Sequence record: KC295538
Reading direction: 5' to 3' (one strand)
From: Escherichia phage PBECO4
DNA length: 64,000 nucleotides
The notes under the pieces are model-generated. The model had not been told where the DNA came from, did no database searches, and saw nothing but the letters and a program-made list of their open reading frames with translations. Below, piece after piece: positions 5,721-24,284 of this stretch. Both the position numbers and the translations under genes were made by a program. The number at the start of each line of letters is the position of its first letter. Positions within the stretch are counted from its first letter, which is position 1.

Positions 5721-5923
5721 TTTGAATCTCCTAACTTTGTGGGCCGTCGCACCATTGCCGCCCTACGAGATACATTATTGCAGTACTGATATACTTTGTC
5801 AATACTTTTTTATTAATAGTTTTAGTTCCACCAGCAGATAGTTACTCACCGTTATTAACTATATATTTTGGATACACTTATGCACCCTGTGGGCTGATTT
5901 GTTTCTATGCGTATATAATAGCA

Positions 5924-5951
5924 AAGGGACTGACCGGAGTCAATCCCTTTT
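5924..5951. terminator. TTGACT-containing hairpin flanked by A-run and T-run (bidirectional terminator-like, copy 1 of 12)
   Basis: aaagggactgaccggagtcaatcccttttt; same element recurs 11 more times. Confidence 0.5.
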
Positions 5952-5964
5952 TTATTCTTTTTTG

Positions 5965-6165
5965 TTAGATGATTCTCCAATCATCAACGATCATGGTAAG
6001 ATACCGAACCAGTGATTCGAGTGATTCGTGTTCTCGATAGTCTGCCGCACCGCCAGCGGTACAAGTACAGCCGATTAAGCCGTTTTGCAATTCCTTAATC
6101 TGTACATCGATAAGGTTGGCTTTAGCTTCTTTCAGTACTTCAACCAGGGCGAGAGCGATAGACAT
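5965..6165 (-). CDS. hypothetical protein
   Basis: Track ORF; promoter+hairpin at 6166..6255. Confidence 0.6.
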   Translation of the reverse strand: MSIALALVEVLKEAKANLIDVQIKELQNGLIGCTCTAGGAADYREHESLESLVRYLTMIVDDWRII

Positions 6166-6255
6166 AATGTTTTACTCCAAACTATTGGCGGGAGAACTAT
6201 TCCCCCGCTCTATGTAAAACATTATACATTACTGGTTAGTACTGTCAAATAGTTT
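6166..6255 (-). promoter_or_regulatory. sigma70-like promoter + 5' UTR hairpin
   Basis: tgtcaa/attata on + strand (TTGACA/TATAAT on minus), hairpin gcgggagaactattcccccgc. Confidence 0.6.
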
Positions 6256-6513
6256 TTATGAAATATCTTCGATGTAGTCGGCCCATTTCATTTTTTCAGT
6301 ACTGTCAATGGCTACCGGATTATTTGGATCAAACCATTCACCATTACCGCAATACATACCAACGGCTACGGTTTTATAGCCATCCTGGGCCGTACACCAC
6401 GACATTGCACGATAGATATGGCCTTTAACTGGTTGCAGTACTGGTAACGTTTTATGGTCTTCTACGTAGGCCATAGCTTGAGGATTTACCCGATATTGTG
6501 TGAATTGTTCCAT
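6256..6513 (-). CDS. hypothetical protein
   Basis: Track ORF; TTGACA-N17-TGTAAT upstream (6514..6589). Confidence 0.6.
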   Translation of the reverse strand: MEQFTQYRVNPQAMAYVEDHKTLPVLQPVKGHIYRAMSWCTAQDGYKTVAVGMYCGNGEWFDPNNPVAIDSTEKMKWADYIEDIS

Positions 6514-6589
6514 TATGTTTCCCCTTGTAGTTAGTAAAGTTATTACATCAGTACTATCAAGCTATGTCAATAGTACTGAAATAAAACTT

Positions 6590-6814
6590 TTAGATTAGAT
6601 TATTGAGGCCGTCAATGGTAGACTCACTTTCTTCTTTCTCCCATTGTCGGTAGTACTTCCATGCTTCATGATAGGTGGCGATTAGTTCATCTTTTTGATC
6701 CTGGTTACATGCCAGTACTGAATCACGGTGAGCGGTGTTATAGATAGAATCGAATGATTTCTTCTCTTCTGCCAGGTTAGCTACTTCCCGCATCAGTTCA
6801 TCAAAGTTAGCCAT
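6590..6814 (-). CDS. hypothetical protein
   Basis: Track ORF; own promoter+hairpin. Confidence 0.6.
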   Translation of the reverse strand: MANFDELMREVANLAEEKKSFDSIYNTAHRDSVLACNQDQKDELIATYHEAWKYYRQWEKEESESTIDGLNNLI

Positions 6815-6881
6815 TTTATTACTCCTTTTAGTGGGGGAGGATATCTCCCCCTATGCAAAACATTATACTTTGTTTTAGTTA
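6815..6881 (-). promoter_or_regulatory. sigma70-like promoter + 5' UTR hairpin
   Basis: hairpin gggggaggatatctccccc; atgcaaaacattatac motif. Confidence 0.55.
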
Positions 6882-7145
6882 TTATGCAAGTACTTTTTTC
6901 ATATAAACATTAAATTCTACACCGCCGTAACCTTCCACGATGATATGTTTTGCGTTATCACGTTTGCACATAGTGAAACCATCGTTTACGTGTTTTGCAT
7001 TTTCCAGGGCGACATCACCGATAGCGGCACATACAGCACTAATAACGATATTCCGCAAAGTACTGGTATCATTAGCGGTCATAGTAGTTTGCATGATTAC
7101 GTTGTCGTATACGTGTGCATTGATAGTGATTTCGATAGTGTTCAT
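6882..7145 (-). CDS. hypothetical protein
   Basis: Track ORF. Confidence 0.6.
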   Translation of the reverse strand: MNTIEITINAHVYDNVIMQTTMTANDTSTLRNIVISAVCAAIGDVALENAKHVNDGFTMCKRDNAKHIIVEGYGGVEFNVYMKKVLA

Positions 7146-7231
7146 GGTGTATCTCCTGGACTGGCGGGAGAACTATTCCCCCGCTCTATGTAAAACATTA
7201 TACGTTAATCTAACTACAATGCAAGTACTTT
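7146..7231 (-). promoter_or_regulatory. sigma70-like promoter + 5' UTR hairpin
   Basis: hairpin gcgggagaactattcccccgc; atgtaaaacattatac. Confidence 0.55.
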
Positions 7232-7423
7232 TTAAATTTTATTTCCGATATAGTCTGGCCTGTTCTTTTCGGTCATACGCTTAAGCATTTTTTGCATATG
7301 GCTTATTGCTTGTAGTGTATCCTCTTCCAGGGATGAATCGAGATAATCAGGATCATTCTTCACCTTGCAATGATTATGATAGCGTAGTACTGCCAGTACT
7401 TTTTTAACTTCTTCAACTGTCAT
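7232..7423 (-). CDS. hypothetical protein
   Basis: Track ORF; overlaps upstream gene by 4 nt. Confidence 0.55.
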   Translation of the reverse strand: MTVEEVKKVLAVLRYHNHCKVKNDPDYLDSSLEEDTLQAISHMQKMLKRMTEKNRPDYIGNKI

Positions 7424-7692
7424 AATAAGTACTCCACTTCGTTAGCTTTCAGGTTAGTATCAATCATCAATGGTTTTTTGTAGTTCACAAAACGATTAGT
7501 TTTTTCGATAGCGAATCCCATATAATCCAGCTTACTAACAGTACATTCATTCTTAAAAACTTCTTTCGCTGCATCGATGGCTGATTGCATGGATAACCGA
7601 CCATCTAAATTAATGTTTCCAAATGATCCACCAGCAGAAGTAGGATTACCGTTCATATCTTTAATGATCATAGTAGCGGAGTAGCTGGACAT
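7420..7692 (-). CDS. hypothetical protein
   Basis: Track ORF; promoter+hairpin at 7693..7776. Confidence 0.6.
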   Translation of the reverse strand: MSSYSATMIIKDMNGNPTSAGGSFGNINLDGRLSMQSAIDAAKEVFKNECTVSKLDYMGFAIEKTNRFVNYKKPLMIDTNLKANEVEYLL

Positions 7693-7776
7693 AATTTTGT
7701 TTCCTTTTAGTATCGGGGAGAACTATTCTCCCCTTGATGTAAACTATTATACAGTACTAATATACTTTGTCAATAC
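7693..7776 (-). promoter_or_regulatory. consensus sigma70-like promoter + 5' UTR hairpin
   Basis: Minus strand TTGACA (7773..7768), 16-nt spacer ending AGTACTG, TATAAT (7751..7746); hairpin ggggagaa-cta-ttctcccc 7714..7733. Confidence 0.65.
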
Positions 7777-7998
7777 TTAATTACGTTTAAAATGATATGT
7801 GCCTTTATCATCCTGTACGCCCCATACTGATTTACCATCAACACCAGTGAAGCCGGATTGTAATTCAATATGGAAACCATTATTATCAACTACAAAAACT
7901 TTTTTATTTTCATCCCGATAACATTGATATTCTGAATCAACATTAAAGGCCGCATCATTCAGAAGATTGGAAGCGTAAATGCAAGTCATTGTAGTCAT
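7777..7998 (-). CDS. hypothetical protein
   Basis: Track ORF 7777..8073 trimmed to ATG 7998 (MTTMTCIY..) with AAGGA SD; extension is translated promoter/hairpin. Confidence 0.6.
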   Translation of the reverse strand: MTTMTCIYASNLLNDAAFNVDSEYQCYRDENKKVFVVDNNGFHIELQSGFTGVDGKSVWGVQDDKGTYHFKRN

Positions 7999-8179
7999 GA
8001 TTTTATTCCTTATTGCCAGGGAGAACCGTTTCCCCCTCTCGATATAAAACATTATACTTGATTCTAAGTACAATGCAAGTACTTTTTTAAAATAGTTTTC
8101 AGTACTGAATACTTATATAATAGATACACTTCCGCACCCTATGGGTCAGTGAGTTATCTCTCAATGAATATATAATAGC

Positions 8180-8210
8180 AAAGGGACTGACCGGAGTCAA
8201 TCCCTTTTTT
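8180..8210. terminator. TTGACT-containing hairpin element (copy 2)
   Basis: aagggactgaccggagtcaatccctttttt. Confidence 0.5.
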
Positions 8211-8218
8211 AATCTTTT

Positions 8219-8803
8219 TTATCGTGTTATAGTTACGGCTTTTACATCACGCTTTTTATAGTACTGATTCCAGATATTGCGGGTTAAACCGTAATCAAGT
8301 ACTTTAATAAGGCCGTTGCGATCCTGGCCGATATTCTGTTTTCTGATATCTCTTATCGTTAGTGTTGACAGTGTATCATCAACGTGTTGTAGTGCATCAG
8401 CAAAGCGGTGCTGGCGTTCAATAGCATTACGTTTAATATTGTACTTTAATTCGTTGCACGCGTTAACGTGCTTCACACTGCCTTTACTTGCAGTACTCAA
8501 CCGATCCATAACAATAAACATATTATCAGGATCGCTTAAATGCATATGCACTTTAGCGAAGAACTGTTTCAACTGAGGGCGGTCATAGTCTAAAAAATTC
8601 CATACCCTACATTCTGTTTCATTTTGTTCTACACCCGCATCACAATTCGCGACCTTGATCACTAACCGATCATTTAAAGCGAAAACTATACGGGAAGAAC
8701 CCGCACCGATGATCTCCAGACCAGCTAACCGACAAGCTGAAAGGATCTCTTTGTTGGTTTCCATTGCTGACAGGGTACGGATGAATTTAGTATAATTACG
8801 CAT
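8219..8803 (-). CDS. protein kinase-like protein (Hanks-type fold)
   Basis: IGAGSSRIVF glycine loop, VIKV lysine, IRDIRKQNIG catalytic-loop-like, LDYG (DFG-like); start trimmed to ATG 8803 with AAGGAG. Confidence 0.55.
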   Translation of the reverse strand: MRNYTKFIRTLSAMETNKEILSACRLAGLEIIGAGSSRIVFALNDRLVIKVANCDAGVEQNETECRVWNFLDYDRPQLKQFFAKVHMHLSDPDNMFIVMDRLSTASKGSVKHVNACNELKYNIKRNAIERQHRFADALQHVDDTLSTLTIRDIRKQNIGQDRNGLIKVLDYGLTRNIWNQYYKKRDVKAVTITR

Positions 8804-8834
8804 TGCATGTTCTCCTTGAGTTAATGAAACTATC

Positions 8835-9134
8835 TTACAGTACTTTACTATCAATGGCAACTACTTTTTTTACACTAACCGCGTGAATCACTTCCTTAGT
8901 GTTTTTAGTACTGAATACTTTCGCCGTGCCTTGTTCTACTGCAATACGATAACGACCGTTAACATCAACCATATTAATAAAGTCCGGTGTACTAAACCGA
9001 GTAGTTTTACATTTCAGTACTGTTAACAGTTCCACCAGCGATGTGGTTTCTTTGATACGTTTTTCTAAAGTAATCATTTTGTTTTCCCCGTGTTGGTATG
9101 TACATATAGTACTAAAACATTTGAGTACTGTCAA
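8835..9134 (-). CDS. hypothetical protein
   Basis: Track ORF. Confidence 0.55.
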   Translation of the reverse strand: MTVLKCFSTICTYQHGENKMITLEKRIKETTSLVELLTVLKCKTTRFSTPDFINMVDVNGRYRIAVEQGTAKVFSTKNTKEVIHAVSVKKVVAIDSKVL

Positions 9135-9385
9135 CGTGATATTAGTTTTATTTTCTTATTATATTGTTGATGTTCATAAAGGTTTATCTTTCCTGTGTTC
9201 TCTATTACTATTCTGTTGTTAGTGTCTACATCGATTACACGCAGTTTTCCGTTGCTTAACTTCCTTGGTAATAGGTTACCATTAATAAACTCATTAGCAA
9301 GCTGTACGGCCTTTGTGATGATTCTCTGAGGTGCTTTATAGTGTACCCGCAAGATATTATCTTTAGATAGTTGTACCTTAATCAT
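9131..9385 (-). CDS. hypothetical protein
   Basis: Track ORF; 4-nt overlap with downstream gene. Confidence 0.55.
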   Translation of the reverse strand: MIKVQLSKDNILRVHYKAPQRIITKAVQLANEFINGNLLPRKLSNGKLRVIDVDTNNRIVIENTGKINLYEHQQYNKKIKLISR

Positions 9386-9400
9386 TTTAGTTTATCCTAT

Positions 9401-9425
9401 AAAAAAGGCGGGAACTGATCCCGCC
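9401..9425 (-). terminator. rho-independent terminator (minus strand)
   Basis: ggcgggaactgatcccgcc hairpin preceded on + by AAAAAA (U-run on minus), just 3' of gene 9448..9843. Confidence 0.6.
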
Positions 9426-9447
9426 GTGTTGTTAGTACTGCAAGTTA

Positions 9448-9843
9448 TTAGATAACCTGTCGGCGTTTACTATATACTGTTACACGATTACCCTTACGGT
9501 CGTGTCGGATCTCTTTCTGGTTGCGTACCAGTTCACTTGGACGCTTCAGGTTTGCCAGGTGATCCGCGTGAGTCCAAGCGGTATGGTTTGTCTGTACTTT
9601 GATATCAGAATCAGCGATAAACTCATCTTGTGCATCAAGTATTGACGCCAGTAAATCCGCTCGTTTTAGTTCTGCTGCTGTTAGTACTGGCTCCGGTGAA
9701 TTCACAATATCAGAGATCTCTTTGAACTGTACGGCCCAGCGTTGACCTTTCGGTGCATCTTTGCCCATGTCTTTAAATGTTTCGCCTTCCTCGCGTGCAA
9801 CAATACGGGCAGCTTCACGGGTAGCGTAGAATTTAGTAATCAT
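9448..9843 (-). CDS. hypothetical protein, paralog of 22341..22607
   Basis: Shared FATRE.ARI.AR..G.TFKDMG and DRKGNRVTVY segments. Confidence 0.6.
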   Translation of the reverse strand: MITKFYATREAARIVAREEGETFKDMGKDAPKGQRWAVQFKEISDIVNSPEPVLTAAELKRADLLASILDAQDEFIADSDIKVQTNHTAWTHADHLANLKRPSELVRNQKEIRHDRKGNRVTVYSKRRQVI

Positions 9844-9938
9844 GGTATACATCCTATTAGTTGAGTTAGTACTACAAGTTAGAGTCTATTATAAAGTACT
9901 ATCTGGGCAATGTCAAATAGTACTTTAAATGGATTCTA

Positions 9939-10262
9939 TTACATGTCTTTCTTACGTTTTACATCGTGGTAGCGAACTGTTATTTCTTTGTTGATCTCTT
10001 CCTCGATGCGGTGAATAACTGTTTCTTTCGGGTTGAAACCTATAACGGTTTCTTTAATGATCTCCAAGCCCGTGTATTCTCCTTGTGTACCGTAACCGTA
10101 AGTAAAGGTTTCATGTCCCAGGTCTTCCCAGCGGTCGCCAATTAACGCGGACACGTAGCAAGAGTGGTAAGTGTTACCGTTCCGATCAGTCCAGCGATTA
10201 ACTTTAATGTCAAAGGAGGTTACAATTTTCAGTTCTACTTTCTGGGTAAGGATCATAGCCAT
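9939..10262 (-). CDS. hypothetical protein, paralog of 16709..17032
   Basis: Shared RWTD..GNTYHSC.VS, FTYGY, C-terminal DVKRKKD. Confidence 0.6.
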   Translation of the reverse strand: MAMILTQKVELKIVTSFDIKVNRWTDRNGNTYHSCYVSALIGDRWEDLGHETFTYGYGTQGEYTGLEIIKETVIGFNPKETVIHRIEEEINKEITVRYHDVKRKKDM

Positions 10263-10352
10263 TTTTATTTCTCTCTCTCTTTGTTAGGAGGGGAACCGTT
10301 TCCCCTCGCTTGATGTAAACTATTATACAGTACTAAGATACTTTGTCAATAC
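10263..10352 (-). promoter_or_regulatory. sigma70-like promoter + 5' UTR hairpin
   Basis: tgtcaa/attata on +; hairpin gaggggaaccgtttcccctc. Confidence 0.6.
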
Positions 10353-10535
10353 TTATTTTTTGGAAAGTTTACGCATTAATTCTACGCTTTCTTGTGAACG
10401 TTTTGCTACCTGGCAATCTGTATGGGTAGTAAACATTTTTGTATAGTCTGACGGTTTGCCACCGAACCGAGCGGCACGCTCACGGGCACTTGGAACTAAT
10501 ACGATTTCTTTCTTACAGATAGTGCACTTAGCCAT
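10353..10535 (-). CDS. small Cys-containing protein (possible zinc ribbon)
   Basis: CTICKK...HTDC in 60 aa; own promoter+hairpin. Confidence 0.5.
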   Translation of the reverse strand: MAKCTICKKEIVLVPSARERAARFGGKPSDYTKMFTTHTDCQVAKRSQESVELMRKLSKK

Positions 10536-10620
10536 TTTTATTTCTCTCTCTTTGTTAGGAGGGGAACCATTCCCCCCTTGATGTAAACTATTATACAGTA
10601 CTAAGATACTTTGTCAATAC
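10536..10620 (-). promoter_or_regulatory. sigma70-like promoter + 5' UTR hairpin
   Basis: Near-identical copy of unit 10263..10352. Confidence 0.6.
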
Positions 10621-10896
10621 TTAATTATTGTAAATGCAGTGAATAGTGATAAAGTTTTTACGACCGTAAACCTGCAAATCAATATCAATGTAGTGCTTAT
10701 CAAGTACATCCTCGACGCTTAACGCGGTGTCGTGAATATCTTCGTAGAATTGAGGATCTACAATCTTGCTTAAGTCATCCGGCGTTAACTTATCGTTAAG
10801 CCATTGAACCGCCTGGATATCTGCTTCACGTTTCCAGTCTTCCAGGTTAGTAGTCAGTACTTGCTCGATTTCGTTAGCTGTCAGTAGAATCCGCAT
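10621..10896 (-). CDS. hypothetical protein
   Basis: Track ORF. Confidence 0.55.
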   Translation of the reverse strand: MRILLTANEIEQVLTTNLEDWKREADIQAVQWLNDKLTPDDLSKIVDPQFYEDIHDTALSVEDVLDKHYIDIDLQVYGRKNFITIHCIYNN

Positions 10897-11093
10897 TTTT
10901 ATGTTTCCTTATCAGTAGTTGATGTAAGTATTATACTCGTTTACTTTCTATTGTCAATCTTTTTTTATCAGGGGAGTTTTTCGTATGTCTTACTCCTGGA
11001 CTACTTAACGGGGTTACTTGTTTTGTTCCCCGTCCTGATGTAAAACATTATACTTGATTCTAAGTACAATGCAAGTACTTTTTAAAAATAGTT

Positions 11094-11258
11094 TTACTTA
11101 CTCATATTAACAGGCTTGAACGGTGGCAATGTAAGATCATGCGGGGTTAAACTATCATGCTTTGCCCACATACCGGAATCCCTACGGAATAATACCTTAT
11201 TGTTTTTTATACGATAAAAGTTACCATTATCAGTGTTTTTGTACCATATCATTTTCAT
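11094..11258 (-). CDS. hypothetical small protein (54 aa)
   Basis: Own translation MKMIWYKNTDNGNF..; GGAG SD; promoter motif upstream. Confidence 0.4.
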   Translation of the reverse strand: MKMIWYKNTDNGNFYRIKNNKVLFRRDSGMWAKHDSLTPHDLTLPPFKPVNMSK

Positions 11259-11398
11259 TTACTCCTGGTTATGTCGTTATTAAACATTATACGGGGTTAT
11301 AGATAGTTTTCAAGTATATTTCAGTACTAGCCACCAGCATATAATAGATACATTTATGCACCCTATGGGCTGATTTTTTTCTATGCGTATATAATAGC

Positions 11399-11430
11399 AA
11401 AGGGACTGACCGGAGTCAATCCCTTTTTTA
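11399..11430. terminator. TTGACT-containing hairpin element (copy 3)
   Basis: agggactgaccggagtcaatccctttttt. Confidence 0.5.
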
Positions 11431-11437
11431 ATTCTTT

Positions 11438-11587
11438 TTAAACTTCTTTCGGGTTGCGATATGTGATAGCGTTCGGGTACATTTGTTTAATGTTATTCCA
11501 TGCCTGGTTAACATTGTAACCACTTGAGCGAATCAGTTGGTTACTACCGACACCTTGAAACACTACTTCGAATAAGAATTCTTTCAT
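11438..11587 (-). CDS. hypothetical small protein (49 aa)
   Basis: Own translation MKEFLFEVVFQG..; ATGA overlap with upstream ORF. Confidence 0.4.
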   Translation of the reverse strand: MKEFLFEVVFQGVGSNQLIRSSGYNVNQAWNNIKQMYPNAITYRNPKEV

Positions 11588-11757
11588 GCTTTCACCTCGC
11601 TATCTGCTTTACCTTTACGCCAGGACATTACTAATTGTTCGCGTTGCCATAAATCGAGTGATACAAAAAGTTTTGCGGTATCACTTTTAGGATACTCGCC
11701 AGTAGTACCTAACCGATAAAACAGATCTTTCAGTACTGATAATTCTACTTGAATCAT
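11584..11757 (-). CDS. hypothetical small protein (57 aa)
   Basis: Own translation MIQVELSVLKDLFYRLG..; translationally coupled. Confidence 0.4.
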   Translation of the reverse strand: MIQVELSVLKDLFYRLGTTGEYPKSDTAKLFVSLDLWQREQLVMSWRKGKADSEVKA

Positions 11758-11863
11758 TTTATTACTCCTGATTGATTTAATACTTCTACTATTGCATGAA
11801 TGATCATAAGTACAGCTAAAACAATAATCATCGGATTCATTTGCATAAGCTGTACTCCTTCTA

Positions 11864-12076
11864 TTAATCTTTCAGCCAATGATCTTGAATGAATTTTTCA
11901 CAGAATCCCTGTTTCATGGATTCCAACAGGCGTTCGCGGTGAGCGTTTGCGAATTGCTCAGTACTATGCGTTACGCCAGGCTGATAACGTGATACCCCAT
12001 CCGGTCCGATGTATTGTACATCCCACGGTTTTTCGTTAGTATCAGACCATTTACGAACGATTAGTTGACCTTGCAT
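11864..12076 (-). CDS. hypothetical protein
   Basis: Track ORF; promoter+hairpin 12077..12159. Confidence 0.6.
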   Translation of the reverse strand: MQGQLIVRKWSDTNEKPWDVQYIGPDGVSRYQPGVTHSTEQFANAHRERLLESMKQGFCEKFIQDHWLKD

Positions 12077-12780: not shown

Positions 12781-13038
12781 TTATCTCATAGATCTATGCC
12801 AACAATTACGCGGGGGACGTTTAAAAGTACTATCATGATCCTCCTGGCAAGTTATGCAGTACTTACATCCCTTAACGGCCTGGCGTCGTTTCTCAGGGAT
12901 TATATCGCCGCAGTCGAGGCAATGTATCAGTGATTCTATTTGTGCGTTAATTTGCTTTCTAGCGTGGTTAACGGCGGCCTGAATCACTGCGTTAATCTCG
13001 TCTTGTTCGGCCCCATCTTTCGCGAATCCTACAGCCAT
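12781..13038 (-). CDS. TraR/DksA-family C4 zinc finger protein
   Basis: C-x2-C-G-x2-IP-x2-RR-x5-C-x2-C spacing (HCLDCGDIIPEKRRQAVKGCKYCITCQ) matches the DksA/TraR zinc finger. Confidence 0.6.
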   Translation of the reverse strand: MAVGFAKDGAEQDEINAVIQAAVNHARKQINAQIESLIHCLDCGDIIPEKRRQAVKGCKYCITCQEDHDSTFKRPPRNCWHRSMR

Positions 13039-13369
13039 TATTTTAACCTCATTATAAAAATACTATAGTACTGTAATGCGACAATAATATTACTTGTTCT
13101 TACTTTTTCCAATCCACATGATACCACATATTCATCCCCATATGTGCGGAACGATACACCATGAAAATTTTTATACACTTGCACTACTAATCATAACCTT
13201 TCGTCTAACCAACTGCATAGAATTATACTACTTTACGCAAATTGATCAAGTATTGATCAGATCATTTTTTGATCAATATTATACAGTTACATTTGTGCAC
13301 CCTATGGGTTAGTGACGTTCTCGTCTTGATGTAAGTATTATGCCAGTACTTGATGATATTGTCAATAGT

Positions 13370-14827: not shown

Positions 14828-15019
14828 GATTCGTTTCCTTATTACTAGGGGAAACCGTTTCCCCTTTCGATGTAAAACATTATACGCTTATTGAGATAGT
14901 TTGCAAGTACTTTTTATCAAATACTTTAAAATAGTTTTCAGTACTCAAACATTATACAATAGATACACTCCTGCACCCTGTGGGCTAGTGAGCTATCTCT
15001 CAATGATTATATAATAACA

Positions 15020-15049: not shown

Positions 15050-15052
15050 CAT

Positions 15053-17651: not shown

Positions 17652-17888
17652 TGTTTTGATTCCTTTGATTTGGAAGGAGAACCGTTTCCCCCTCTCGATG
17701 TAAAACATTATACGCTAATCTCTTAATCGTGCAAGTACTTTTTATTACTTTTTGCAAAATACTTTAAACGCTCTCAATCGCATTCTAACGACCTTAACGC
17801 CACCAGCTAGGGCGATGTATCAGATAATCAGTTTAATGCGTTAGAATCGATTCTAGGCGGTGCTGGTGGACTGGAATACTACAGACAC

Positions 17889-17915
17889 AAAAAAGCCCAC
17901 TGTTTAAGGTGGGCT
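17889..17915 (-). terminator. rho-independent terminator (minus strand)
   Basis: agcccactgtttaaggtgggct hairpin with A-run on + (U-run on minus), 3' of gene 17937..18419. Confidence 0.6.
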
Positions 17916-17936
17916 AGTGATTCAGTACTTTAATTG

Positions 17937-18419
17937 TTATGCTTCAACTTTGCGATGAGCTTCGATCCATTCCTCGCGAGTCATACCGCTTTCTTTGATA
18001 GCGTCCAGTACTACCGCAATGCAGTTACCGCGTACAGGAATCATATGTTCTTCCCCGTTATCAAGTACTACAGTAACACGTTCTTGAATCCATTTTTTAG
18101 GTTTAGATTCTGGCTTATCTTCACCATACTTAACCGCCAGGGCTTTATGTGCCATTTCTACAACTACTTCCAGATCCAATCCAGCCACCGCCGCCTGGAT
18201 ACTTTCGATTGTTGCTTGCAGTTCGGCTTCACGGGCTTTTTTCTGTTCTTCCAGTTCTGCTACCTTTTTGGCTTGCAGTTCTTTAGCTTCACTGTACGCA
18301 ATGTTAAAATTGTTGCGTACTGCTTTCATGGTATCGTTATCCAGGTCAGCCAACAATTCAGCAGCAATAACAGTATCGTTTGAAATCAGTGCTTTCAGGA
18401 ATGATTTTACATTAGCCAT
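17937..18419 (-). CDS. hypothetical protein (predicted coiled-coil segment)
   Basis: Track ORF trimmed to MANVKSF..; central AKELQAKKVAELEEQKKAREAELQ heptad-like stretch. Confidence 0.6.
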   Translation of the reverse strand: MANVKSFLKALISNDTVIAAELLADLDNDTMKAVRNNFNIAYSEAKELQAKKVAELEEQKKAREAELQATIESIQAAVAGLDLEVVVEMAHKALAVKYGEDKPESKPKKWIQERVTVVLDNGEEHMIPVRGNCIAVVLDAIKESGMTREEWIEAHRKVEA

Positions 18420-18623
18420 TTTATAAATCCTCAATTAAAGTTTAGTTTACGTTTATTAGTGTATCAAAGTTTTATCGACGTGTCCAGTTTTTCGTTCGAC
18501 TTACTGGCGGTCTACTTAGTGCTCCCCGTCTTGATGTAATACATTCTACGCCTTTTTGTGGTAATGTCAACTACTATTTTAAAACTATTTTTAAAGTATG
18601 CAGTACTACGATAATACAAAAAC

Positions 18624-18650
18624 AAAAAAGCCCACTGTTTAAGGTGGGCT
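18624..18650 (-). terminator. rho-independent terminator (minus strand)
   Basis: Second copy of agcccactgtttaaggtgggct with A-run. Confidence 0.6.
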
Positions 18651-18667
18651 AGTGATTCAGTACTATA

Positions 18668-18967
18668 TTATAAACAGTTAATTACTCCGGTGTGCGTTAC
18701 TTTCTCAGTATCCATAACCGTGACCGATCCACGCTTAGTACTTACATCGTAATAAATTGTCGTGCTACCTTTTTCGTCTTCTTCATGGAACGGGCCGCTT
18801 TTAAATGCTTCTGGCTGGATCTCTAAATCCTTTAAAACAATCTCGCCAGTACTTTCATCTGTCATCGCAACAGTGCACTGAATGAATTTTTCACTACTTA
18901 CATCTAACGACGCATTAACAGCGAAAGAGGAAACAGATAAAGCCAGGGCGATGATTGCAATTTTCAT
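18668..18967 (-). CDS. small secreted protein (signal peptide)
   Basis: MKIAIIALALSVSSFAVNA N-terminus. Confidence 0.6.
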   Translation of the reverse strand: MKIAIIALALSVSSFAVNASLDVSSEKFIQCTVAMTDESTGEIVLKDLEIQPEAFKSGPFHEEDEKGSTTIYYDVSTKRGSVTVMDTEKVTHTGVINCL

Positions 18968-19051
18968 TTGATTATCCTTAGTTACCAGGGGGAACCGCTC
19001 CCCCGTGCGATGTAAAATATTGTACAGTACTAAAAACTAATTGCAAGTACT
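18968..19051 (-). promoter_or_regulatory. sigma70-like promoter + 5' UTR hairpin
   Basis: agggggaaccgctccccct hairpin. Confidence 0.55.
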
Positions 19052-19288
19052 TTATGATTTTTTATAAAACATTTCGGCAGTAATATTTTTACCCGTTGGT
19101 TGTACTTTATCCAGAATTTTTTGATGCCCTGGCCGTCCAAATGAATATGATCCGTAAACCGTAAACCAGTAGTTACCCTCAGTGTTTACATGTACAGCAC
19201 AATAGGGAACGCCCCGCGATTCATCACCAATAAAGTGTGATACCGTTCCCGTTACATTAGCAGACGTTGATTTGATTTGTTCAAGCAT
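19052..19288 (-). CDS. hypothetical protein
   Basis: Track ORF. Confidence 0.55.
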   Translation of the reverse strand: MLEQIKSTSANVTGTVSHFIGDESRGVPYCAVHVNTEGNYWFTVYGSYSFGRPGHQKILDKVQPTGKNITAEMFYKKS

Positions 19289-19397
19289 TTTCTTATTCCT
19301 TAGTTACCAGGGGGAACCGCTCCCCCTATGCAAAACATTATACGCGTTTAAAAACTAATAGCAAGTATTTTAATAAAAAGTATTTGAAAAATAATTG

Positions 19398-19426
19398 TTG
19401 ACAACTGCATCCAGTACTGGCATAAT
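19398..19426 (+). promoter_or_regulatory. + strand sigma70-like promoter (TTGACA-N17-CATAAT) driving a short noncoding transcript
   Basis: ttgaca 19398..19403, cataat 19421..19426; downstream box ctaacccaccgggtgc; no + strand ORF. Confidence 0.45.
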
Positions 19427-19500
19427 TACTACATCAAGACGAAACAGTCACTAACCCACCGGGTGCCGAGATCCGTCTATTAAATGATTCAGTACTTAAC

Positions 19501-19524
19501 AATAAAGGGGATCAATCGATCCCC
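19501..19524 (-). terminator. hairpin terminator (minus strand; may also stop the + strand transcript)
   Basis: ggggatcaatcgatcccc with flanking A/T runs immediately 3' of gene 19531..19752. Confidence 0.5.
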
Positions 19525-19530
19525 TATGTA

Positions 19531-19752
19531 TTACTTAGTAAGGTATAAACAGAAGTCACCTTTATTTGCTACGCCGCCAGTGTAACGCGATGAATAGTTA
19601 GAAACGTCCTGGACTTCTGCTATTACCAGTGTATCATCATTCAATTCGTCGCAGAAGCAAACGGCTGGATCTTTTACGCCGATCTTGTCGGCATGTTCCC
19701 GCATAGATTTAACCAGTGCTTCCAGTTGAGAAAGAGTAGTGATATTAGCCAT
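19531..19752 (-). CDS. hypothetical protein
   Basis: Track ORF trimmed to ATG 19752 (MANITTLSQ..). Confidence 0.55.
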   Translation of the reverse strand: MANITTLSQLEALVKSMREHADKIGVKDPAVCFCDELNDDTLVIAEVQDVSNYSSRYTGGVANKGDFCLYLTK

Positions 19753-19836
19753 TGTATTTTCCTCATTACCAGGGAGAACCATTTCTCCCCTCTATGTAAA
19801 CTATTATACAGTACTGAAAACTAATTGCAAGTACTT
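19753..19836 (-). promoter_or_regulatory. sigma70-like promoter + 5' UTR hairpin
   Basis: gggagaaccatttctcccc hairpin. Confidence 0.55.
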
Positions 19837-20025
19837 TTAATTAAATTCCATAAAATCATTCTCAACGTGCACAACAATTTGATTGTTTTTAAAGTCCGCA
19901 GCGAACTCGATGCAATCATAAACCGCTTTTTGTGTTACAATGCTATGAGTACCAATCGGATTAATAGGGGATTGAATTGTTTCAATCTCGTTCCCTTGCT
20001 CATTAACAATTAAAATATTAAACAT
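19837..20025 (-). CDS. hypothetical protein
   Basis: Track ORF. Confidence 0.5.
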   Translation of the reverse strand: MFNILIVNEQGNEIETIQSPINPIGTHSIVTQKAVYDCIEFAADFKNNQIVVHVENDFMEFN

Positions 20026-20081
20026 CGCTGTTACTCCTGGGTAGTGTTAACTCGATATAAAGTATTATACGCCTTTATTGC

Positions 20082-20324
20082 TTAGTGTCCAGTACTTTTT
20101 AAAACATATTCATAAACACTACGCACATCATTGATCATCGCCTGGCGGTTAGCAGGTAACGCACCAGGATCGCCACTATCCCAGGCATTGATAAAACTCC
20201 CCAAATCATGAAAGATTTTATTCTGTAAGCCGATTAACTGCAATTCTTTTTCTTCAAGCTCTTTGATACGGTCAATTAAAAGACTCATTAGATAATCCTC
20301 AGTACTTAATTGTAAGATCCGCAA
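20082..20324 (-). CDS. hypothetical protein
   Basis: Track ORF. Confidence 0.5.
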   Translation of the reverse strand: MRILQLSTEDYLMSLLIDRIKELEEKELQLIGLQNKIFHDLGSFINAWDSGDPGALPANRQAMINDVRSVYEYVLKSTGH

Positions 20325-20632
20325 CGGTTACAATAGTGCCCGTCTTCCTCGTCATCGTCAACGAATTGACCGACGAAATTATCTACTTTCTCTTTGAGAT
20401 TCTGATAATTGTTTTCAACTTCCTTTAGACGTTCCTGGTAGTATTCCAGGGCTTGCACATACGCCGCCTCAGCCGTTTTCGCTCTTAAGGCTAAATTCAT
20501 GCCACGCGTTTCATCGTACATCCAAAAGCCATCGGTGCACTCACTGATTGACAATGATTTGGTTAACACTTTATAGTCAATTACTTTGCTCATTAGATAA
20601 TCCTCAGTAAAGGCGGGAACCACACCCGCCAT
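20306..20632 (-). CDS. hypothetical protein
   Basis: Track ORF; C-terminal CNRC. Confidence 0.5.
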   Translation of the reverse strand: MAGVVPAFTEDYLMSKVIDYKVLTKSLSISECTDGFWMYDETRGMNLALRAKTAEAAYVQALEYYQERLKEVENNYQNLKEKVDNFVGQFVDDDEEDGHYCNRCGSYN

Positions 20633-20649
20633 TGATTCAGTACTGAATG

Positions 20650-20889
20650 TTACATTCCAACCATTGCAGCACGGATCGCCGTAGTGCTATACTTGAATCC
20701 GTCCGGTGTTGTAGTAGTACCGTTGGCTTTTAATCTGCGGTACATACATTGGGCCGCAATATCTTTAGTTTTACATTGTGCGATGCAACTTTGAGCAAGC
20801 CGATATAATGACTCACCGTTATTAATCCACAATGAAACATTCCAATGAGTTTTGTTTTTGTGCCCGTTGTAAGTTTTAGTAGTAGCCAT
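20650..20889 (-). CDS. hypothetical protein, paralog of 22698..22937
   Basis: Shared GHKNKTHWNVSLWINN..LYRLAQ and C-terminal TPDGFKYSTTAIRAAMVGM. Confidence 0.6.
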   Translation of the reverse strand: MATTKTYNGHKNKTHWNVSLWINNGESLYRLAQSCIAQCKTKDIAAQCMYRRLKANGTTTTPDGFKYSTTAIRAAMVGM

Positions 20890-20985
20890 TTTTAAATCCT
20901 CGTTTAATTGAGCGGGAGAACCATTCCCCCGCCTCGATATAAAGTATTATACGCTTTTAAACTTAGTTTGCAAGTACTTTTTAAA
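20890..20985 (-). promoter_or_regulatory. sigma70-like promoter + 5' UTR hairpin
   Basis: gcgggagaaccattcccccgc hairpin. Confidence 0.55.
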
Positions 20986-21597
20986 TTAATATGCGATTGA
21001 TTCTACTACGTCATCAATAACATTGAATTGATACTCGTTACCCTCGATCAGTGCCGTGATGTTCTCAGTAGTGAATTGATCCTCATATGCATTCTCTAAA
21101 TCACGGTACAACTTGCGGGACAATTCACGAATAGTATCAGTGAGTAGTTCCTCAAGCTCATTAACTAACGTTTCTTGTTTTGCGGTTAAATCAGTGTAAG
21201 CCGATTCAATGTACCCGCTTACAGTATTCTCATGCGAGTAGTGGGAGTGCGAACGCTTTACACTCATCGCCAAATCATCTTCATTCAGCAAGTGACGGAT
21301 TGAGCGATACTTAGTTAATGCTCTTACCTTGCGTAAAAACTTCACTGCGTCAACGTGGTCAGTACTGATTGATGCACCGTCACCCTGGGACCAAAAACCA
21401 CTGAATTGTATTTCAGCTTCATTAATGCCATATTCCGGTAGTACTGTTTCTTTATAGTATTCAATTTCACTTTCAGAAAAATAATTGTCGTTTGAGTTTT
21501 TTTCACGTTCCCGAACCAGTTCGATAGCTGACGTTTGTTGTTCTGCGTTCAATTCAGAAAAATCCATAACGAAAGTAGTAGTAGTGATAGTTTTCAT
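20986..21597 (-). CDS. hypothetical acidic protein (203 aa)
   Basis: Track ORF. Confidence 0.6.
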   Translation of the reverse strand: MKTITTTTFVMDFSELNAEQQTSAIELVREREKNSNDNYFSESEIEYYKETVLPEYGINEAEIQFSGFWSQGDGASISTDHVDAVKFLRKVRALTKYRSIRHLLNEDDLAMSVKRSHSHYSHENTVSGYIESAYTDLTAKQETLVNELEELLTDTIRELSRKLYRDLENAYEDQFTTENITALIEGNEYQFNVIDDVVESIAY

Positions 21598-21819
21598 TTT
21601 GTAACCCTCATTCAGTAGTTGATGTAAGTATTATACGCTTTTAAAAACATTTGTCAAACTATTTTATCAGGGGAGTTTTTCGTGTGCCTTACTCCTGGGC
21701 TACTTAACGGGAAGTTACTTATTTCGTTCCCCGTCCTGATGTAAAACATTATACGCCTTTAAACATAGTTTGCAAGTACTTTTTAAAAATAGTTTTCAGT
21801 ACTGAATATTAAAAAAGTA

Positions 21820-21848
21820 TTGACAGCATTATCAAGTACTGGCATAAT
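21820..21848 (+). promoter_or_regulatory. + strand sigma70-like promoter (TTGACA-N17-CATAAT) driving a short noncoding transcript
   Basis: ttgaca 21820..21825, cataat 21843..21848; downstream ctaacccaccgggtgc box then atagatacactcccgcaccctatgggct box. Confidence 0.45.
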
Positions 21849-22022
21849 ATACCACATGACAACAGCTAACCCACCGGGTGCACAATTGTAACTATACTAA
21901 ACTAATTTTTCTATAGATACACTCCCGCACCCTATGGGCTACGGCTTATCTGCCAATGAATACATTATGCCAGTACTGACAAAATAAGTCAATACCGGCA
22001 ATTGTAAAGATTTGTAAACTAC

Positions 22023-22253
22023 TTATACTGCAATCGCGTCCAGGCTATAATAATAATAAGTGCCGTATTGGTGTACTTTATTACCTTTTATTTCAGTACT
22101 GAATGAATCCGAACGATTTGCATATGATGTTAATTTAAAGTACTTTGATTTGCTGATACGTTGCCATACACCACAGATCCGCTGTAAGTAAGTAGTTTTA
22201 TTCGTGGTAGTATCTTTTACGGTTTTAACTTCAGTCATATACATATTAGTCAT
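22023..22253 (-). CDS. hypothetical protein
   Basis: Track ORF. Confidence 0.55.
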   Translation of the reverse strand: MTNMYMTEVKTVKDTTTNKTTYLQRICGVWQRISKSKYFKLTSYANRSDSFSTEIKGNKVHQYGTYYYYSLDAIAV

Positions 22254-22340
22254 TTTTATTACTCCAGGTTATAGGCGGGAAGAGTTCCCGCTCTCGATGT
22301 AAAACATTATACGCCTTTAAACATAGTTTGCAAGTACTTT
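22254..22340 (-). promoter_or_regulatory. sigma70-like promoter + 5' UTR hairpin
   Basis: gcgggaagagttcccgc hairpin. Confidence 0.55.
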
Positions 22341-22607
22341 TTATTCAAGTACTGCAATCTTTTTAGTACGGTACACGGTCACGCGGTTGCCCTTTCGGTC
22401 GAGCTTTATTTCTACCACTCGACGCGATACACTATCGGGACTTTTTAAGGCCGCTAACCAGTACTGTAATGATCTGGCTGTACTACGCTTTACAATGGCC
22501 CAACGTTTACCACGTTCCGATTGTACGCCCATATCTTTAAACGTTGCCCCGTCCTGGCGTGCGGCGATCCGAGCTTGTTCACGCGTCGCAAAATACTTAA
22601 TATTCAT
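22341..22607 (-). CDS. hypothetical protein, paralog of 9448..9843
   Basis: Trimmed to ATG 22607 (MNIKYFATREQARIAARQDGATFKDMG..). Confidence 0.6.
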   Translation of the reverse strand: MNIKYFATREQARIAARQDGATFKDMGVQSERGKRWAIVKRSTARSLQYWLAALKSPDSVSRRVVEIKLDRKGNRVTVYRTKKIAVLE

Positions 22608-22697
22608 GCTGTTGCCCTTATCGTTGGTGTATGAATAAAACACTATTATAAAGTACTATCGCAAAAAATGATAGTACTTTAAATAAATTCTATTCTA

Positions 22698-22937
22698 TTA
22701 CATTCCAACCATCGCCGCACGGATCGCAGTAGTGCTATACTTAAAGCCGTCCGGTGTTTTATCTTGTCCAGTCTGTTCTAAAAATAGCATCATATGACGG
22801 GCCGCATCATTACGATTAGTATTGGCGGCAATAAAGTCCTGGGCCAACCGATACAATCCCTCATCGTTATTAATCCAAAGGCTTACATTCCAATGAGTTT
22901 TGTTTTTGTGACCTAAGAACATTTTTGATTTAGCCAT
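22698..22937 (-). CDS. hypothetical protein, paralog of 20650..20889
   Basis: Trimmed to ATG 22937 (MAKSKMFLGHKNKTHWN..). Confidence 0.6.
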   Translation of the reverse strand: MAKSKMFLGHKNKTHWNVSLWINNDEGLYRLAQDFIAANTNRNDAARHMMLFLEQTGQDKTPDGFKYSTTAIRAAMVGM

Positions 22938-23019
22938 TTTTTTAATCCTCTTATATAGTGGGGAACTATTCCCCACCTGATGTAAAGTATTATACGCTTT
23001 TAAATTTAGTTTGCAAGTA
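22938..23019 (-). promoter_or_regulatory. sigma70-like promoter + 5' UTR hairpin
   Basis: gtggggaactattccccac hairpin. Confidence 0.55.
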
Positions 23020-23253
23020 CTATTTTTTCAGTACTGGTAAACCTTTGATCTCACCTGGCTGTACTTCCTCAAAGGCGACCGCCATCATACGGCTATCATC
23101 TTCCTTACATTCTTCCATCGCATCACAAAAATGATTAATAACGTCCGGTGCAACGTCAACCACATCAAACAAGCCAACCTCAGTGCAACGGCTTAAAGCG
23201 TTTAATAGGTCAGTCAGTGCAACGGATTGAGAAACAGTTAAAATAGTACTCAT
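23020..23253 (-). CDS. hypothetical acidic protein
   Basis: Track ORF. Confidence 0.55.
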   Translation of the reverse strand: MSTILTVSQSVALTDLLNALSRCTEVGLFDVVDVAPDVINHFCDAMEECKEDDSRMMAVAFEEVQPGEIKGLPVLKK

Positions 23254-23347
23254 ACAATTAATCTCTTAATTATAGTGGGGAACTATTCCCCACCTGATGT
23301 AAAACATTATACGCTTTTAAACTTAGTTTGCAAGTACTTTATTAAAC
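23254..23347 (-). promoter_or_regulatory. sigma70-like promoter + 5' UTR hairpin
   Basis: Same hairpin as 22938..23019. Confidence 0.55.
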
Positions 23348-23710
23348 TTATTTGTAAATTTTGCCACTGTCAGCCCATACCAGGAAACGAGGCATATTAT
23401 CCCATGCATCTTGTTTTAAATTTAAACCGTGCAATTCCTCAGTAGTTGCCATCCCTGGTACTGGCTTACTACACACCGCGAAATTTTCGCCCATATACTG
23501 ATAAACCATCGTCAAATCATTTGAGATCATCTTATGGATCATCGCATCAAGCATCACGGTAGCGGCGTATTGTTCACGCTTAAGCGGCAGCATTTTAATC
23601 AGTTCGCGGTATGCGTCAATGTGAGTTTTAACCGTTGCCGCCGGAAGATCTTTCATCTCGTCGCGGAAGTTAACCAGGTTAGCAATAATTTTGGTGATTT
23701 GAGTTGCCAT
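23348..23710 (-). CDS. hypothetical protein
   Basis: Track ORF trimmed to ATG 23710 (MATQITKIIA..). Confidence 0.6.
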   Translation of the reverse strand: MATQITKIIANLVNFRDEMKDLPAATVKTHIDAYRELIKMLPLKREQYAATVMLDAMIHKMISNDLTMVYQYMGENFAVCSKPVPGMATTEELHGLNLKQDAWDNMPRFLVWADSGKIYK

Positions 23711-23800
23711 CGTTTTAATCTCTCTTAAAGTGTAGCGGGAACACTTCCCGCTCTCGATGTAAAACATTATACGCTTTTATCAGTACGGTGCAAGTACTTT
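23711..23800 (-). promoter_or_regulatory. sigma70-like promoter + 5' UTR hairpin (last unit before noncoding hub)
   Basis: gcgggaacacttcccgc hairpin. Confidence 0.55.
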
Positions 23801-23825
23801 CTACAAATACTTTTAAAATAGTTTT

Positions 23826-23917
23826 CTTTCTATATAGGAGTACTATTATTCAGTACTGAATCAATCCAGGGGAACTATCTTTCTATATAGGAGTACTATT
23901 ATTCAGTACTGAATCAA
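23826..23917. repeat. 39-bp direct repeat x2
   Basis: ctttctatataggagtactattattcagtactgaatcaa at 23826..23864 and 23879..23917. Confidence 0.7.
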
Positions 23918-24069
23918 CCAAATCACTACTACACCCCATAAAACGGCCTCAGACGCATTCTAACGCATTAATACACCTAAGCTATACATTTGCACCACTC
24001 CCAACAATCCAGGGCGTTACGGGCCGTTTAAACGCGTTAAATTATTTTCAATTATTTTGTTTTTAGGTA

Positions 24070-24097
24070 TTGACTTGATCCTGAAAAAGCGTATAAT
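24070..24097 (+). promoter_or_regulatory. + strand promoter (TTGACT-N16-TATAAT)
   Basis: ttgact 24070..24075, tataat 24092..24097; downstream gggtgcgg ... ccgcaccc long-range inverted repeat. Confidence 0.45.
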
Positions 24098-24284
24098 TAC
24101 TACATAGACGCGAGAAAGCGGAAACCCCAGAGGGTGCGGAATTACGCCCAAAATTCAAGATATAAAAAAAGGATACACTCCCGCACCCTAGCAGGTAAAC
24201 GCACTTTCTCAGTACTGAATTATAGTACCATAGTCCGGCCCAGGATGGCAAGCAAATTAATTAAAACTTTTTTCATCCAGGGTA

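Follow-up and report, generated by a model that had tools for sequence, protein, structure and literature searches.

The early region of Escherichia phage PBECO4 (sequence record KC295538) contains repeated copies of an RNA motif of about 49 nt with two small hairpins, found behind sigma-70 promoters on the same strand. The copies were analysed in a stretch of 64,000 nucleotides of this genome (the window). The motif is classed here as a leader and small-RNA motif that is specific to the clade of Rak2-like jumbo phages and has not been described before. It may be a factor-recognition tag, carried by very abundant early RNAs and meant for a conserved partner, and on the sequence evidence this function appears about evenly balanced between right and wrong. 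An earlier note on the window had listed a part of the motif, seen on the opposite strand, as a conserved box.

Structure and conservation of the two hairpins

The covariance model of the motif has 49 positions and the box of the earlier note is its hairpin 2. From 5' to 3' the order is the start with a conserved CA, hairpin 1, a CUAR linker, hairpin 2, a near-invariant UGC, five variable nucleotides and the GUAUCUAU tail (conserved as U-G-U-A-U-C-U-A-U). Hairpin 1 lies directly upstream of the box and starts 2-4 nt from the predicted transcription start. Its stem has 3-5 bp and was found as 24 different complementary sequences, for example GAG/CTC, GGC/GCC, GAC/GTC, GTC/GAC, CCA/TGG, AGCA/TGCT, ACCAC/GTGGT and ATTG/CAAT. 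The purine-rich loop typically has 6-7 nt (GAGAAA, GCGAAA, AGATAA or AGAACAA), with 6 nt in 33 copies, 7 in 10, 8 in 3, 4 in 2 and 9 in 1. Hairpin 2 has 4 bp (R-CCC, a loop of A-Y-A or of 4 nt, GGG-U). The stem of this box is invariant save in two independent copies, L008:4521 and L031:7801. Each of them has a good promoter ahead of it and a U-A pair, changed on both sides, in place of the C-G that closes the loop.

Pairing was evaluated in a model-guided alignment of 72 distinct copies. Standard pairs fill 95.6% of the pair cells, compared with 76.5% after shuffling and no more than 47% when partners are slid, and the covariation score is 0.357 compared with 0.132. When mutual information was calculated for all columns against all, the top three column pairs were the three inner pairs of hairpin 1, all of them Watson-Crick. 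Single copies fold weakly (z-scores of -0.2 to -1.9), hairpin 1 often being absent from the fold of minimum energy. The stem of hairpin 1 is selected for pairing only, and hairpin 2 and its flanks are selected for sequence. The earlier view that sequence rather than structure is conserved is therefore wrong in its second half: the 24 stems, the mutual information and the two compensatory box variants reveal that the structure is conserved as well.

The same note had suggested either a protein-binding site or a processed RNA motif. That it is an RNA motif, processed or not, is supported, while a protein site on double-stranded DNA is unlikely, because a duplex binder would not select complementary arms of freely varying sequence. 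Any action at the DNA level, whether the box is an operator bound by a DNA-binding protein of phage or host or the units serve replication or packaging (R-loop primers at origins near 24.4-25.7 kb), is highly improbable. As DNA, CCC-N3-GGG is palindromic, and its position at about +25 to +35 would suit a roadblock repressor, but hairpin 1 covaries without sequence conservation, which a duplex binder would not select, and the box spacing varies (3 or 4 nt). The flanks of the box are also asymmetric, with UGC on one side only, and G-U pairs point to RNA. Five copies do cluster by an open reading frame (ORF)-poor region with iteron-like repeats and a GC-skew minimum, and convergent promoter pairs are unusual for gene expression; however, six of the copies in the window are 3-18 kb away from that region.

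Several other interpretations of the conserved parts were rejected. For a closing helix or pseudoknot between the tail and 5' parts, folds of single sequences point to partners that differ between copies, and mutual information shows no long-range covariation. A mini-ORF in the tail (AUG/GUG UAU CUA UAG) is contradicted by the variants GUAACUGU, CCGUCUAU and UUACGCCC, which are not codon-like. A sigma-dependent pause element would involve a TAnnnT hexamer, which is in a fixed register in just 25 of the 72 copies. Likenesses to CsrA sites, CRISPR repeats, anticodon loops, rrn boxA and 16S rRNA were weighed, and none seems to fit all copies.

Promoters, copies in the window and distribution

In 10 out of 10 strong copies of the window a near-consensus sigma-70 promoter of the form TTGACA/T-16/18-(T/C)AT(A/T)AT precedes the motif, with its -10 hexamer 20-29 nt upstream, on the strand that reads CCC..GGGTGC. 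Among the copies collected from relatives, 65 of 66 have the motif 20-29 nt past the -10 hexamer of a TTGACA/T-16/18-TATAAT-like promoter, and copies detected later by the covariance model alone are likewise found behind such promoters. A conserved CA follows the -10 hexamer, its A being 6 nt past the hexamer in 40 of the 72 copies and 8 nt past it in 17. This spacing makes the A the expected transcription start, which would place the motif at the 5' end of the RNA. In the window the predicted starts include 8165, 13330, 15004 and 21957 on the minus strand and 19433, 24104 and 24319 on the plus strand.

The functional strand is accordingly the reverse complement of the one on which the box was first described: CCC-N3-GGGUGC reads on the strand of the adjacent sigma-70 promoter. 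The orientation is fixed by 46 G-U pair cells of the promoter strand, which would be A-C mismatches on the other. A small RNA on that other strand, with the TATAAT by the box as its promoter and the TTGACT hairpin as its terminator, was rejected. It lacks a usable -35 hexamer, the opposite-strand -10 hexamer is not kept in RaK2 and others, the G-U pairs fit the promoter strand only, and a sense promoter is present at 65 of the 66 collected copies. Record LT960552.1 annotates an opposite-strand promoter across a motif copy (L035 1525-1557), and several public records put "hypothetical protein" coding sequences (CDSs) across copies. These are probably mis-annotations of the RNA element.

In four copies of the window the -35 hexamer TTGACT is inside a 12-bp hairpin, AAAGGGATTGACTCCGGTCAGTCCCTTT, which is followed by a T-rich stretch holding the -10 hexamer. 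The remaining six copies have only the weak hairpins of the motif, downstream of the start site. In the annotation of phage UE-S1 the TTGACT hairpin is a terminator on the gene strand. The earlier count of four boxes next to this hairpin (5.9, 8.1, 11.4 and 15.0 kb) was right, but they had been placed upstream of it; since the -35 hexamer of the box's own promoter is within the hairpin, the box is downstream. Seven more terminator-promoter hairpins (TTGACTTCGGTCAG; AAGGGTTGACTTCGGTCAGCCCTTTTTGCTATAAT) occur at 46-59 kb without a box, on the minus strand at 46119, 47909, 48833, 53031, 54120, 55697 and 59122 (AAGGGTTGACTTCGGTCAGCCCTTTTTGCTATAAT). The five read downstream (46119, 47909, 48833, 55697, 59122) are directly followed by a short leader and a gene. 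Hairpin promoter and box are therefore separate modules.

The TTGACT hairpin with its promoter is a terminator-promoter composite of the PeSL (promoter-early stem-loop) type, named in T4-type phages by Arbiol et al. 2010 (PMC2839356) and also treated by Comeau et al. 2014 (PMC4122927). In both systems ~100-bp intergenic cassettes are repeated among small ORFan early genes, with a near-consensus sigma-70 promoter, an AT-rich upstream part and a stem-loop over the -35 hexamer or downstream of the -10 hexamer. The genomes of relatives are mosaic around the cassettes, and a terminator-like hairpin holds the -35 hexamer in the four copies of the window. A PeSL, however, is defined by a promoter with a stable GC-rich stem-loop of any sequence, and it extends to the ribosome site of the gene that comes next, whereas the motif is a specific two-hairpin RNA with invariant bases after the start. 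It occurs with or without an upstream hairpin, and what comes after it is often not a gene but a second promoter, a terminator or a facing copy. PeSL cassettes are further credited with recombination and mini-circle formation. The carriers also differ, being T4-type phages proper for PeSL and Rak2-like jumbo phages for the motif.

The number of copies in the window is far above chance. The 14-mer first noticed, GCACCCTATGGGCT, has 8 matches with at most 2 mismatches (0.08 expected from shuffles), and the core CCC-N3/4-GGGTGC (CCC-N3/4-GGGUGC as RNA) has 13 (0.6 expected). The half-motif ATAGATACAC alone is at chance level, with 9 matches and 8.6 expected. Over the whole 64 kb the covariance model finds 10 strong copies (E 3e-19 to 3e-7) and one degenerate copy (E 0.16), and beyond these nothing below E 0.4. 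All are confined to 5.8-24.4 kb, and the strong ones are six on the minus strand and four on the plus strand. The seven positions of the earlier note, which had claimed at least seven copies, are all correct, the one at ~24175 being the degenerate copy; the four plus-strand copies, opposite in orientation, had been missed. The recurring string tatctctcaatga reported with the box is also real, and is the reverse complement of hairpin 1 and the first transcribed bases.

Four of the minus-strand copies follow a hairpin promoter of the form TTGACT-17-TATTAT. The first (5867-5910) belongs to a short class with 2-3 bp in hairpin 1. Its box, CCCACAGGGTGC, is at 5893-5882, its predicted start is A 5908, its promoter is at 5943-5915 (part of 5915-5950) with the hairpin at 5950-5923, and a second minus-strand promoter follows at 5802-5774. 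The copy at 8119-8167 is the best match in the window (61.9 bits; hairpin 1 UGAG-AGAUAA-CUCA, box 8145-8134, predicted start A 8165); its promoter (8200-8172) is within the hairpin 8207-8180, and a second promoter comes next, then a gene ending at 7777. Another short-class copy (11343-11386, box 11369-11358) has its promoter at 11419-11391 within the hairpin 11426-11399, and a Chi site (GCTGGTGG on the minus strand) is found ~20 nt downstream of it. The fourth (14958-15006, hairpin 1 UGAG-AGAUAG-CUCA, box 14984-14973) has its promoter at 15039-15011 within the hairpin 15046-15019. The minus-strand copy at 13282-13330 (hairpin 1 GACG-AGAA-CGUC, box 13308-13297) follows a TTGACA-17-CATAAT promoter with a TG extension and without the hairpin (13337-13365, minus strand), and ~240 untranslated nucleotides separate it from a gene for a DksA/TraR-finger protein (13038-12781).

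The first plus-strand copy (19433-19481, hairpin 1 GAC-GAAACA-GUC, box 19455-19466) has a TTGACA-17-CATAAT promoter at 19398-19426, antisense to the surrounding gene block. A convergent pair is formed by a short-class plus-strand copy at 21859-21896 (box 21870-21881; promoter TTGACA-17-CATAAT, 21820-21848) and the minus-strand copy it faces at 21912-21959 (hairpin 1 UGGC-AGAUAA-GCCG, box 21938-21927; promoter TTGACT-17-CATAAT, 21964-21992). The plus-strand copy at 24104-24152 has a 4-nt box loop (CCC-CAGA-GGGUGC, 24126-24137), hairpin 1 CGC-GAGAAA-GCG, the variant tail UUACGCCCAAAAUUC and a TTGACT-16-TATAAT promoter at 24070-24097; it is faced by the degenerate minus-strand copy (CCTGCTAGGGTGCGGGAGTGTATCC, 24168-24215). 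The last plus-strand copy (24319-24367, hairpin 1 AGUC-GAGAAA-GACU, box 24341-24352, promoter TTGCTT-16-TATAAT at 24285-24312) points into the ORF-poor 24.4-25.7 kb.

Likeness among the copies in the window is limited to about -75 to +40 around the box. Farther out, flank identity is 0.56-0.57 compared with 0.57 for random segments, which rules out a segmental duplication. The motif search in related phages suggested in the earlier note was carried out, and the consensus matched 66 of 50,697 phage records by blastn, at 2-16 places per record. The box is thus not confined to one genome as part of a recent duplication, the outcome named there as a refutation. All 66 records are phages of ~350 kb except the 52-kb Klebsiella phage phiKp_21. 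Their hosts belong to eight genera of Enterobacterales (Escherichia, Klebsiella, Salmonella, Erwinia, Yersinia, Pectobacterium, Cronobacter and Serratia). The motif is found in Asteriusvirus, RaK2/K64-1, GAP32 and CBB as well as in Yersinia, Serratia, Erwinia and Salmonella jumbo phages; UE-S1, 121Q and RaK2 all possess it. Contigs of IMG/VR with the motif match RaK2, 121Q, GAP32, CBB, Serratia phage BF and Yersinia phage fHe-Yen9-04, among others, in size.

A host or prophage origin was rejected. In one genome for each of 185,579 prokaryote species a 24-position pattern gave 9 scattered matches, with about nine estimated by chance, and zero in Enterobacterales. True copies score 28-63 bits, whereas singleton IMG/VR matches reach just 22-24 bits. 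In Rfam 15 there was no gathering-level match in the window, and permissive searches over the copies gave nothing at the motif. Motif strings are absent from the relevant papers in the searchable literature. Papers on CBB and related phages describe RpoD-like early promoters, and in those on CBB, PA5oct and related phages the motif or leader is not described.

Transcription units and possible function

The genomic contexts of the 72 distinct copies fall into four types. In ~30 copies the motif is followed by a second sigma-70 promoter and then by a gene 80-250 nt downstream; in the window these are the boxes at 5893, 8145, 11369, 13308 and 14984. In another ~16 copies a GC-rich hairpin that ends in T-rich sequence comes after the motif, at a steady distance of 19-25 nt, and many of these units have the spacer AGUACUGUACAAAUAAAC in common. 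RNAalifold recovers the box hairpin and the terminator base in them, and they look like stand-alone RNA genes of ~100 nt. The third type consists of eight convergent pairs in six genomes, with boxes 30-52 nt apart. In the fourth a single copy is found directly before a gene. Promoter and RNA domain travel together as a cassette of ~100 bp.

A promoter and terminator of their own within ~100-150 nt, without an ORF, are seen in the ~16 units of relatives and weakly in one unit of the window, but not in its other 9 copies. This one unit (19433 to ~19535, plus strand, antisense to the gene block) is a probable stand-alone RNA of ~100 nt with the motif as its 5' domain. A bidirectional terminator hairpin with GGGGATCAATCGATCCCC (19506-19525) is found 25 nt past the motif. 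In RaK2 the counterpart of this unit shares the GGGGATCAATCGATCCCC terminator and has a compensated hairpin 1 (GAC/GTC versus GCC/GGC), although the proteins encoded beside it have no relation to those in the window; the terminator can thus be assigned to the RNA unit itself. A type I toxin-antitoxin pair was considered for this 19.4-kb convergent unit and rejected, since the proteins next to it are not hydrophobic and those of RaK2 are of another kind.

In the window the convergent type is represented by 21859-21896 (plus) with 21912-21959 (minus), and also by the copy at 24104 (plus) with its decayed partner. At the centre of such pairs in RaK2 and three relatives there is a palindrome (for example GAGAATGATAATGATTCTC) resembling a Fur box (L003 21941-21979, L005 1274-1308, L008 332-366 and L033 6086-6113). 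It is absent from the convergent pair of the window, and no match with fewer than 4 mismatches was found anywhere in the window.

The layout of the ~16 units of relatives and of 19433-~19535 is that of phage small RNA genes with their own promoter and intrinsic terminator. The motif differs from these in that the same 5' domain is also fused to mRNA leaders and occurs in convergent pairs, in many copies and with a variable 3' part. A family of base-pairing small RNAs, in which the single-stranded tail (UGUAUCUAU) or the box would be a seed for a conserved host or phage mRNA and convergent pairs would be mutually antisense, is very unlikely. The stand-alone units are indeed built like enterobacterial small RNAs (promoter, conserved 5' part, A/U-rich spacer, terminator) and the convergent pairs recur in six genomes. 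However, no target was identified, the reverse complement of the tail is at chance level in the window, the conserved bases are mostly inside hairpins and most copies are without a terminator.

The main rival explanation is a cis-acting element of the nascent RNA that modifies the transcribing host polymerase, either protein-free like put or with an N-like protein like nut, hairpin 1 being the counterpart of boxB. Pausing or termination would be suppressed, or escape from very strong promoters helped. This explanation is unlikely, though it accounts for the constant placement of the motif at the very start of early sigma-70 transcripts, as in putL. The RNA of HK022 putL starts at +3 of the PL transcript and put is a ~70-nt RNA with two long bulged stem-loops (PMC9378689). 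Both put and the motif are two-hairpin RNAs just downstream of an early sigma-70 promoter, transcribed by the host polymerase at the start of infection. The put RNA, however, forms an RNA triplex, occurs twice per genome and makes polymerase ignore terminators, whereas the motif has ~49 nt, stems of 3-5 bp and 4 bp and 10-16 copies per genome, many of them directly before terminators. No sequence similarity was seen between the two.

The likeness to nut is that of a promoter-proximal RNA site in which a small hairpin with a free stem and a conserved purine-rich loop stands beside a sequence-conserved element. In the motif this second element is itself a hairpin, and no match to boxA (CGCUCUUA/GCUCUUUA) with at most 1 mismatch was found within any copy, nor is there a boxA beside one. 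The boxB of lambda has a 5-bp stem with a GNRA-like pentaloop, while the loops of hairpin 1 mostly have 6-7 nt and none has 5. No N family was detected by Pfam among the 49 early ORFs of the window and no N-like protein was recognised there, with the caveat that such proteins are small and poorly conserved. The many units ahead of 90-250 nt of untranslated, Rho-exposed leader and the several intrinsic terminators within the early block would suit an antiterminator, and a conserved target, for instance RNA polymerase, would agree with how strongly the motif is kept across hosts. Conversely, the ~16 units with an apparent terminator of their own within 19-25 nt make little sense for one, and in four units of the window a terminator is followed by a fresh promoter, so that read-through is not needed for the downstream genes. 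The size and stems are far from those of put, and the -10-like pause element is in register in only the 25 copies mentioned above. The cassette is thus one of the "early promoter plus stem-loop" kind, nut- or put-like in logic, yet failing defining features of each.

The short distance between hairpin 1 and the predicted 5' end (2-4 nt) would also be expected of a generic 5'-terminal stabiliser against 5'-end-dependent decay (RppH, RNase E), or of a mere stem-loop part of PeSL cassettes, acting without a partner. At other early promoters the 5' hairpin is another one, GGGGAGAA-N3-4-TTCTCC, with at least 12 copies, and the published PeSL cassettes include some whose stem-loop is past the -10 hexamer (PMC2839356). 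This explanation is nevertheless quite unlikely: stems of only 3-5 bp are not unusually stable, a stabiliser has no need for an invariant CCC/GGG-UGC and for loops and a tail conserved across eight host genera, and in the stand-alone units there is no message in need of protection.

Neither hairpin would be stable by itself, yet the pairing of hairpin 1 and the sequence of hairpin 2 are strongly selected across genera, which makes a recognition tag the most likely of these functions. Host RNA polymerase would start at a subset of the strongest sigma-70 early promoters of the phage, with the motif as the transcript 5' end. Output of the tag would then be very high during the first minutes of infection, partly in the form of stand-alone RNAs of ~100 nt and partly as 5' ends of early mRNAs. 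The partner could be a phage early protein, a host RNA-binding protein or RNA polymerase, and binding might titrate a host factor, mark early RNAs or control their fate.

Five points weigh against the recognition tag. The claims on expression and function are wholly sequence-based. No RNA-binding protein was recognised among the 49 early ORFs of the window. Action in trans alone gives a tag no reason to be confined to start sites, as the motif is, so that inheritance as a cassette, or a 5'-end-dependent or co-transcriptional function, must be invoked. The only stand-alone unit of the window has a poor U-tract in its own (plus) direction. Finally, the alignment behind the pair counts was fitted to the model and favours the structure; this bias is offset by the hairpin 1 stems being visible in unaligned sequences too and by the top three ranks in mutual information.

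The surrounding early region and the significance of the motif

By megablast the window groups with Asteriusvirus, jumbo coliphages of ~350 kb (UE-S1, SP27, 121Q, phAPEC6 and others), and coverage by these relatives is mosaic (40-69% at 90-98% identity). Its 4-24 kb portion is a block of ~50 small minus-strand ORFs, nearly all ORFans. At curated cut-offs the only Pfam matches among the 49 early ORFs are a DksA/TraR zinc finger, a ParE-like domain and three DUF matches, two matches being DUF7249 paralogues. The ORFs with matches above cut-off include those at 12781-13038, 9131-9385, 20650-20889 and 22698-22976, all on the minus strand. The product of the first, a DksA/TraR C4 zinc-finger gene by Pfam, is a possible binder of the polymerase secondary channel. 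In the ~240-nt leader between this gene and the 13308 box a cluster of TGATCA/GATC palindromes (ttgatcaaaaaatgatctgatcaatacttgatcaat) is found at 13200-13280; across the window GATC is rarer than expected (135 observed, ~212 expected). Near-consensus sigma-70 promoters crowd the gene strand of the early block, with 10 perfect TTGACA-16/17-TATAAT and dozens scoring 10-11 of 12. An early region with an "RpoD-like promoter" was described in the related phage CBB (PMC5259590), and the promoter-packed block of the window corresponds to it.

The second family of leader hairpins, GGGGAGAA-N3-4-TTCTCC(CC), begins ~9 nt past the start site of many other consensus early promoters and immediately ahead of the ribosome site. 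Its minus-strand members include 5338, 7733, 8036, 10577, 12113, 14431, 15464, 15789, 17374, 17692 and 19790. The sequence CAGTACTG occurs 56 times in the window but not in the first 4 kb; it is in the spacer of most early promoters (agtactgTATAAT, agtactggCATAAT) and in other intergenic places, and could be a protein site or promoter element. The hexamer AGTACT occurs 266 times (~22 expected), most densely at 4-28 kb, compared with 12-28 occurrences for each of the other palindromic hexamers of similar composition.

Chi sites are strongly enriched and skewed, with 9 on the minus strand and 2 on the plus strand, where about 1 or fewer would be expected per strand. They are CCACCAGC at 5828, 7628, 9032, 11331, 12599, 13644, 17800, 24846 and 50774, and GCTGGTGG at 17862 and 24858. 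Several adjoin box units, and in relatives some are inside promoter spacers. In this orientation RecBCD entering from the low-coordinate side would be stopped.

The ORF-poor region extends over 1.3 kb (24400-25700), and its counterparts are gene-free in the annotations of 121Q (135.2-137.2 kb) and RaK2 (224.6-226.1 kb). It contains promoters on both strands, seven iteron-like TAGCCRTY repeats (24536-24647) and a further relic of the box tail (24690-24730). The cumulative GC skew has its minimum at ~26 kb, where the gene strand does not change. The region may be an origin, a packaging site or a terminal-repeat boundary.

Rak2-like jumbo phages of ~350 kb (121Q/PBECO4, RaK2/K64-1, GAP32, CBB and relatives) are phage therapy candidates. 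To our knowledge almost nothing has been reported on how they take over the host, and their early regions are arrays of unnamed small genes. In every genus examined the motif flags a defined subset of the strongest early transcription units. It also improves the annotation of records that have CDSs or opposite-strand promoters over copies, and a 49-nt RNA with clear mutational predictions is a cheap experimental handle for partner fishing. More tentatively, and with the balance leaning against it, the motif could represent a new class of promoter-coupled regulatory RNA of jumbo phages, either as a compact cis-element reprogramming the host polymerase on its way out of the strongest early promoters or as a multi-copy decoy that titrates a conserved enterobacterial RNA-binding or defence protein within minutes of infection. 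The polymerase-reprogramming form, if true, would parallel put or nut in function but not in structure. Should RNA polymerase or a Nus factor prove to be the partner, elongation would be controlled here in a new way; should it be a host protein that binds RNA or serves in defence, phages would have a new device, based on RNA, for takeover or anti-defence.

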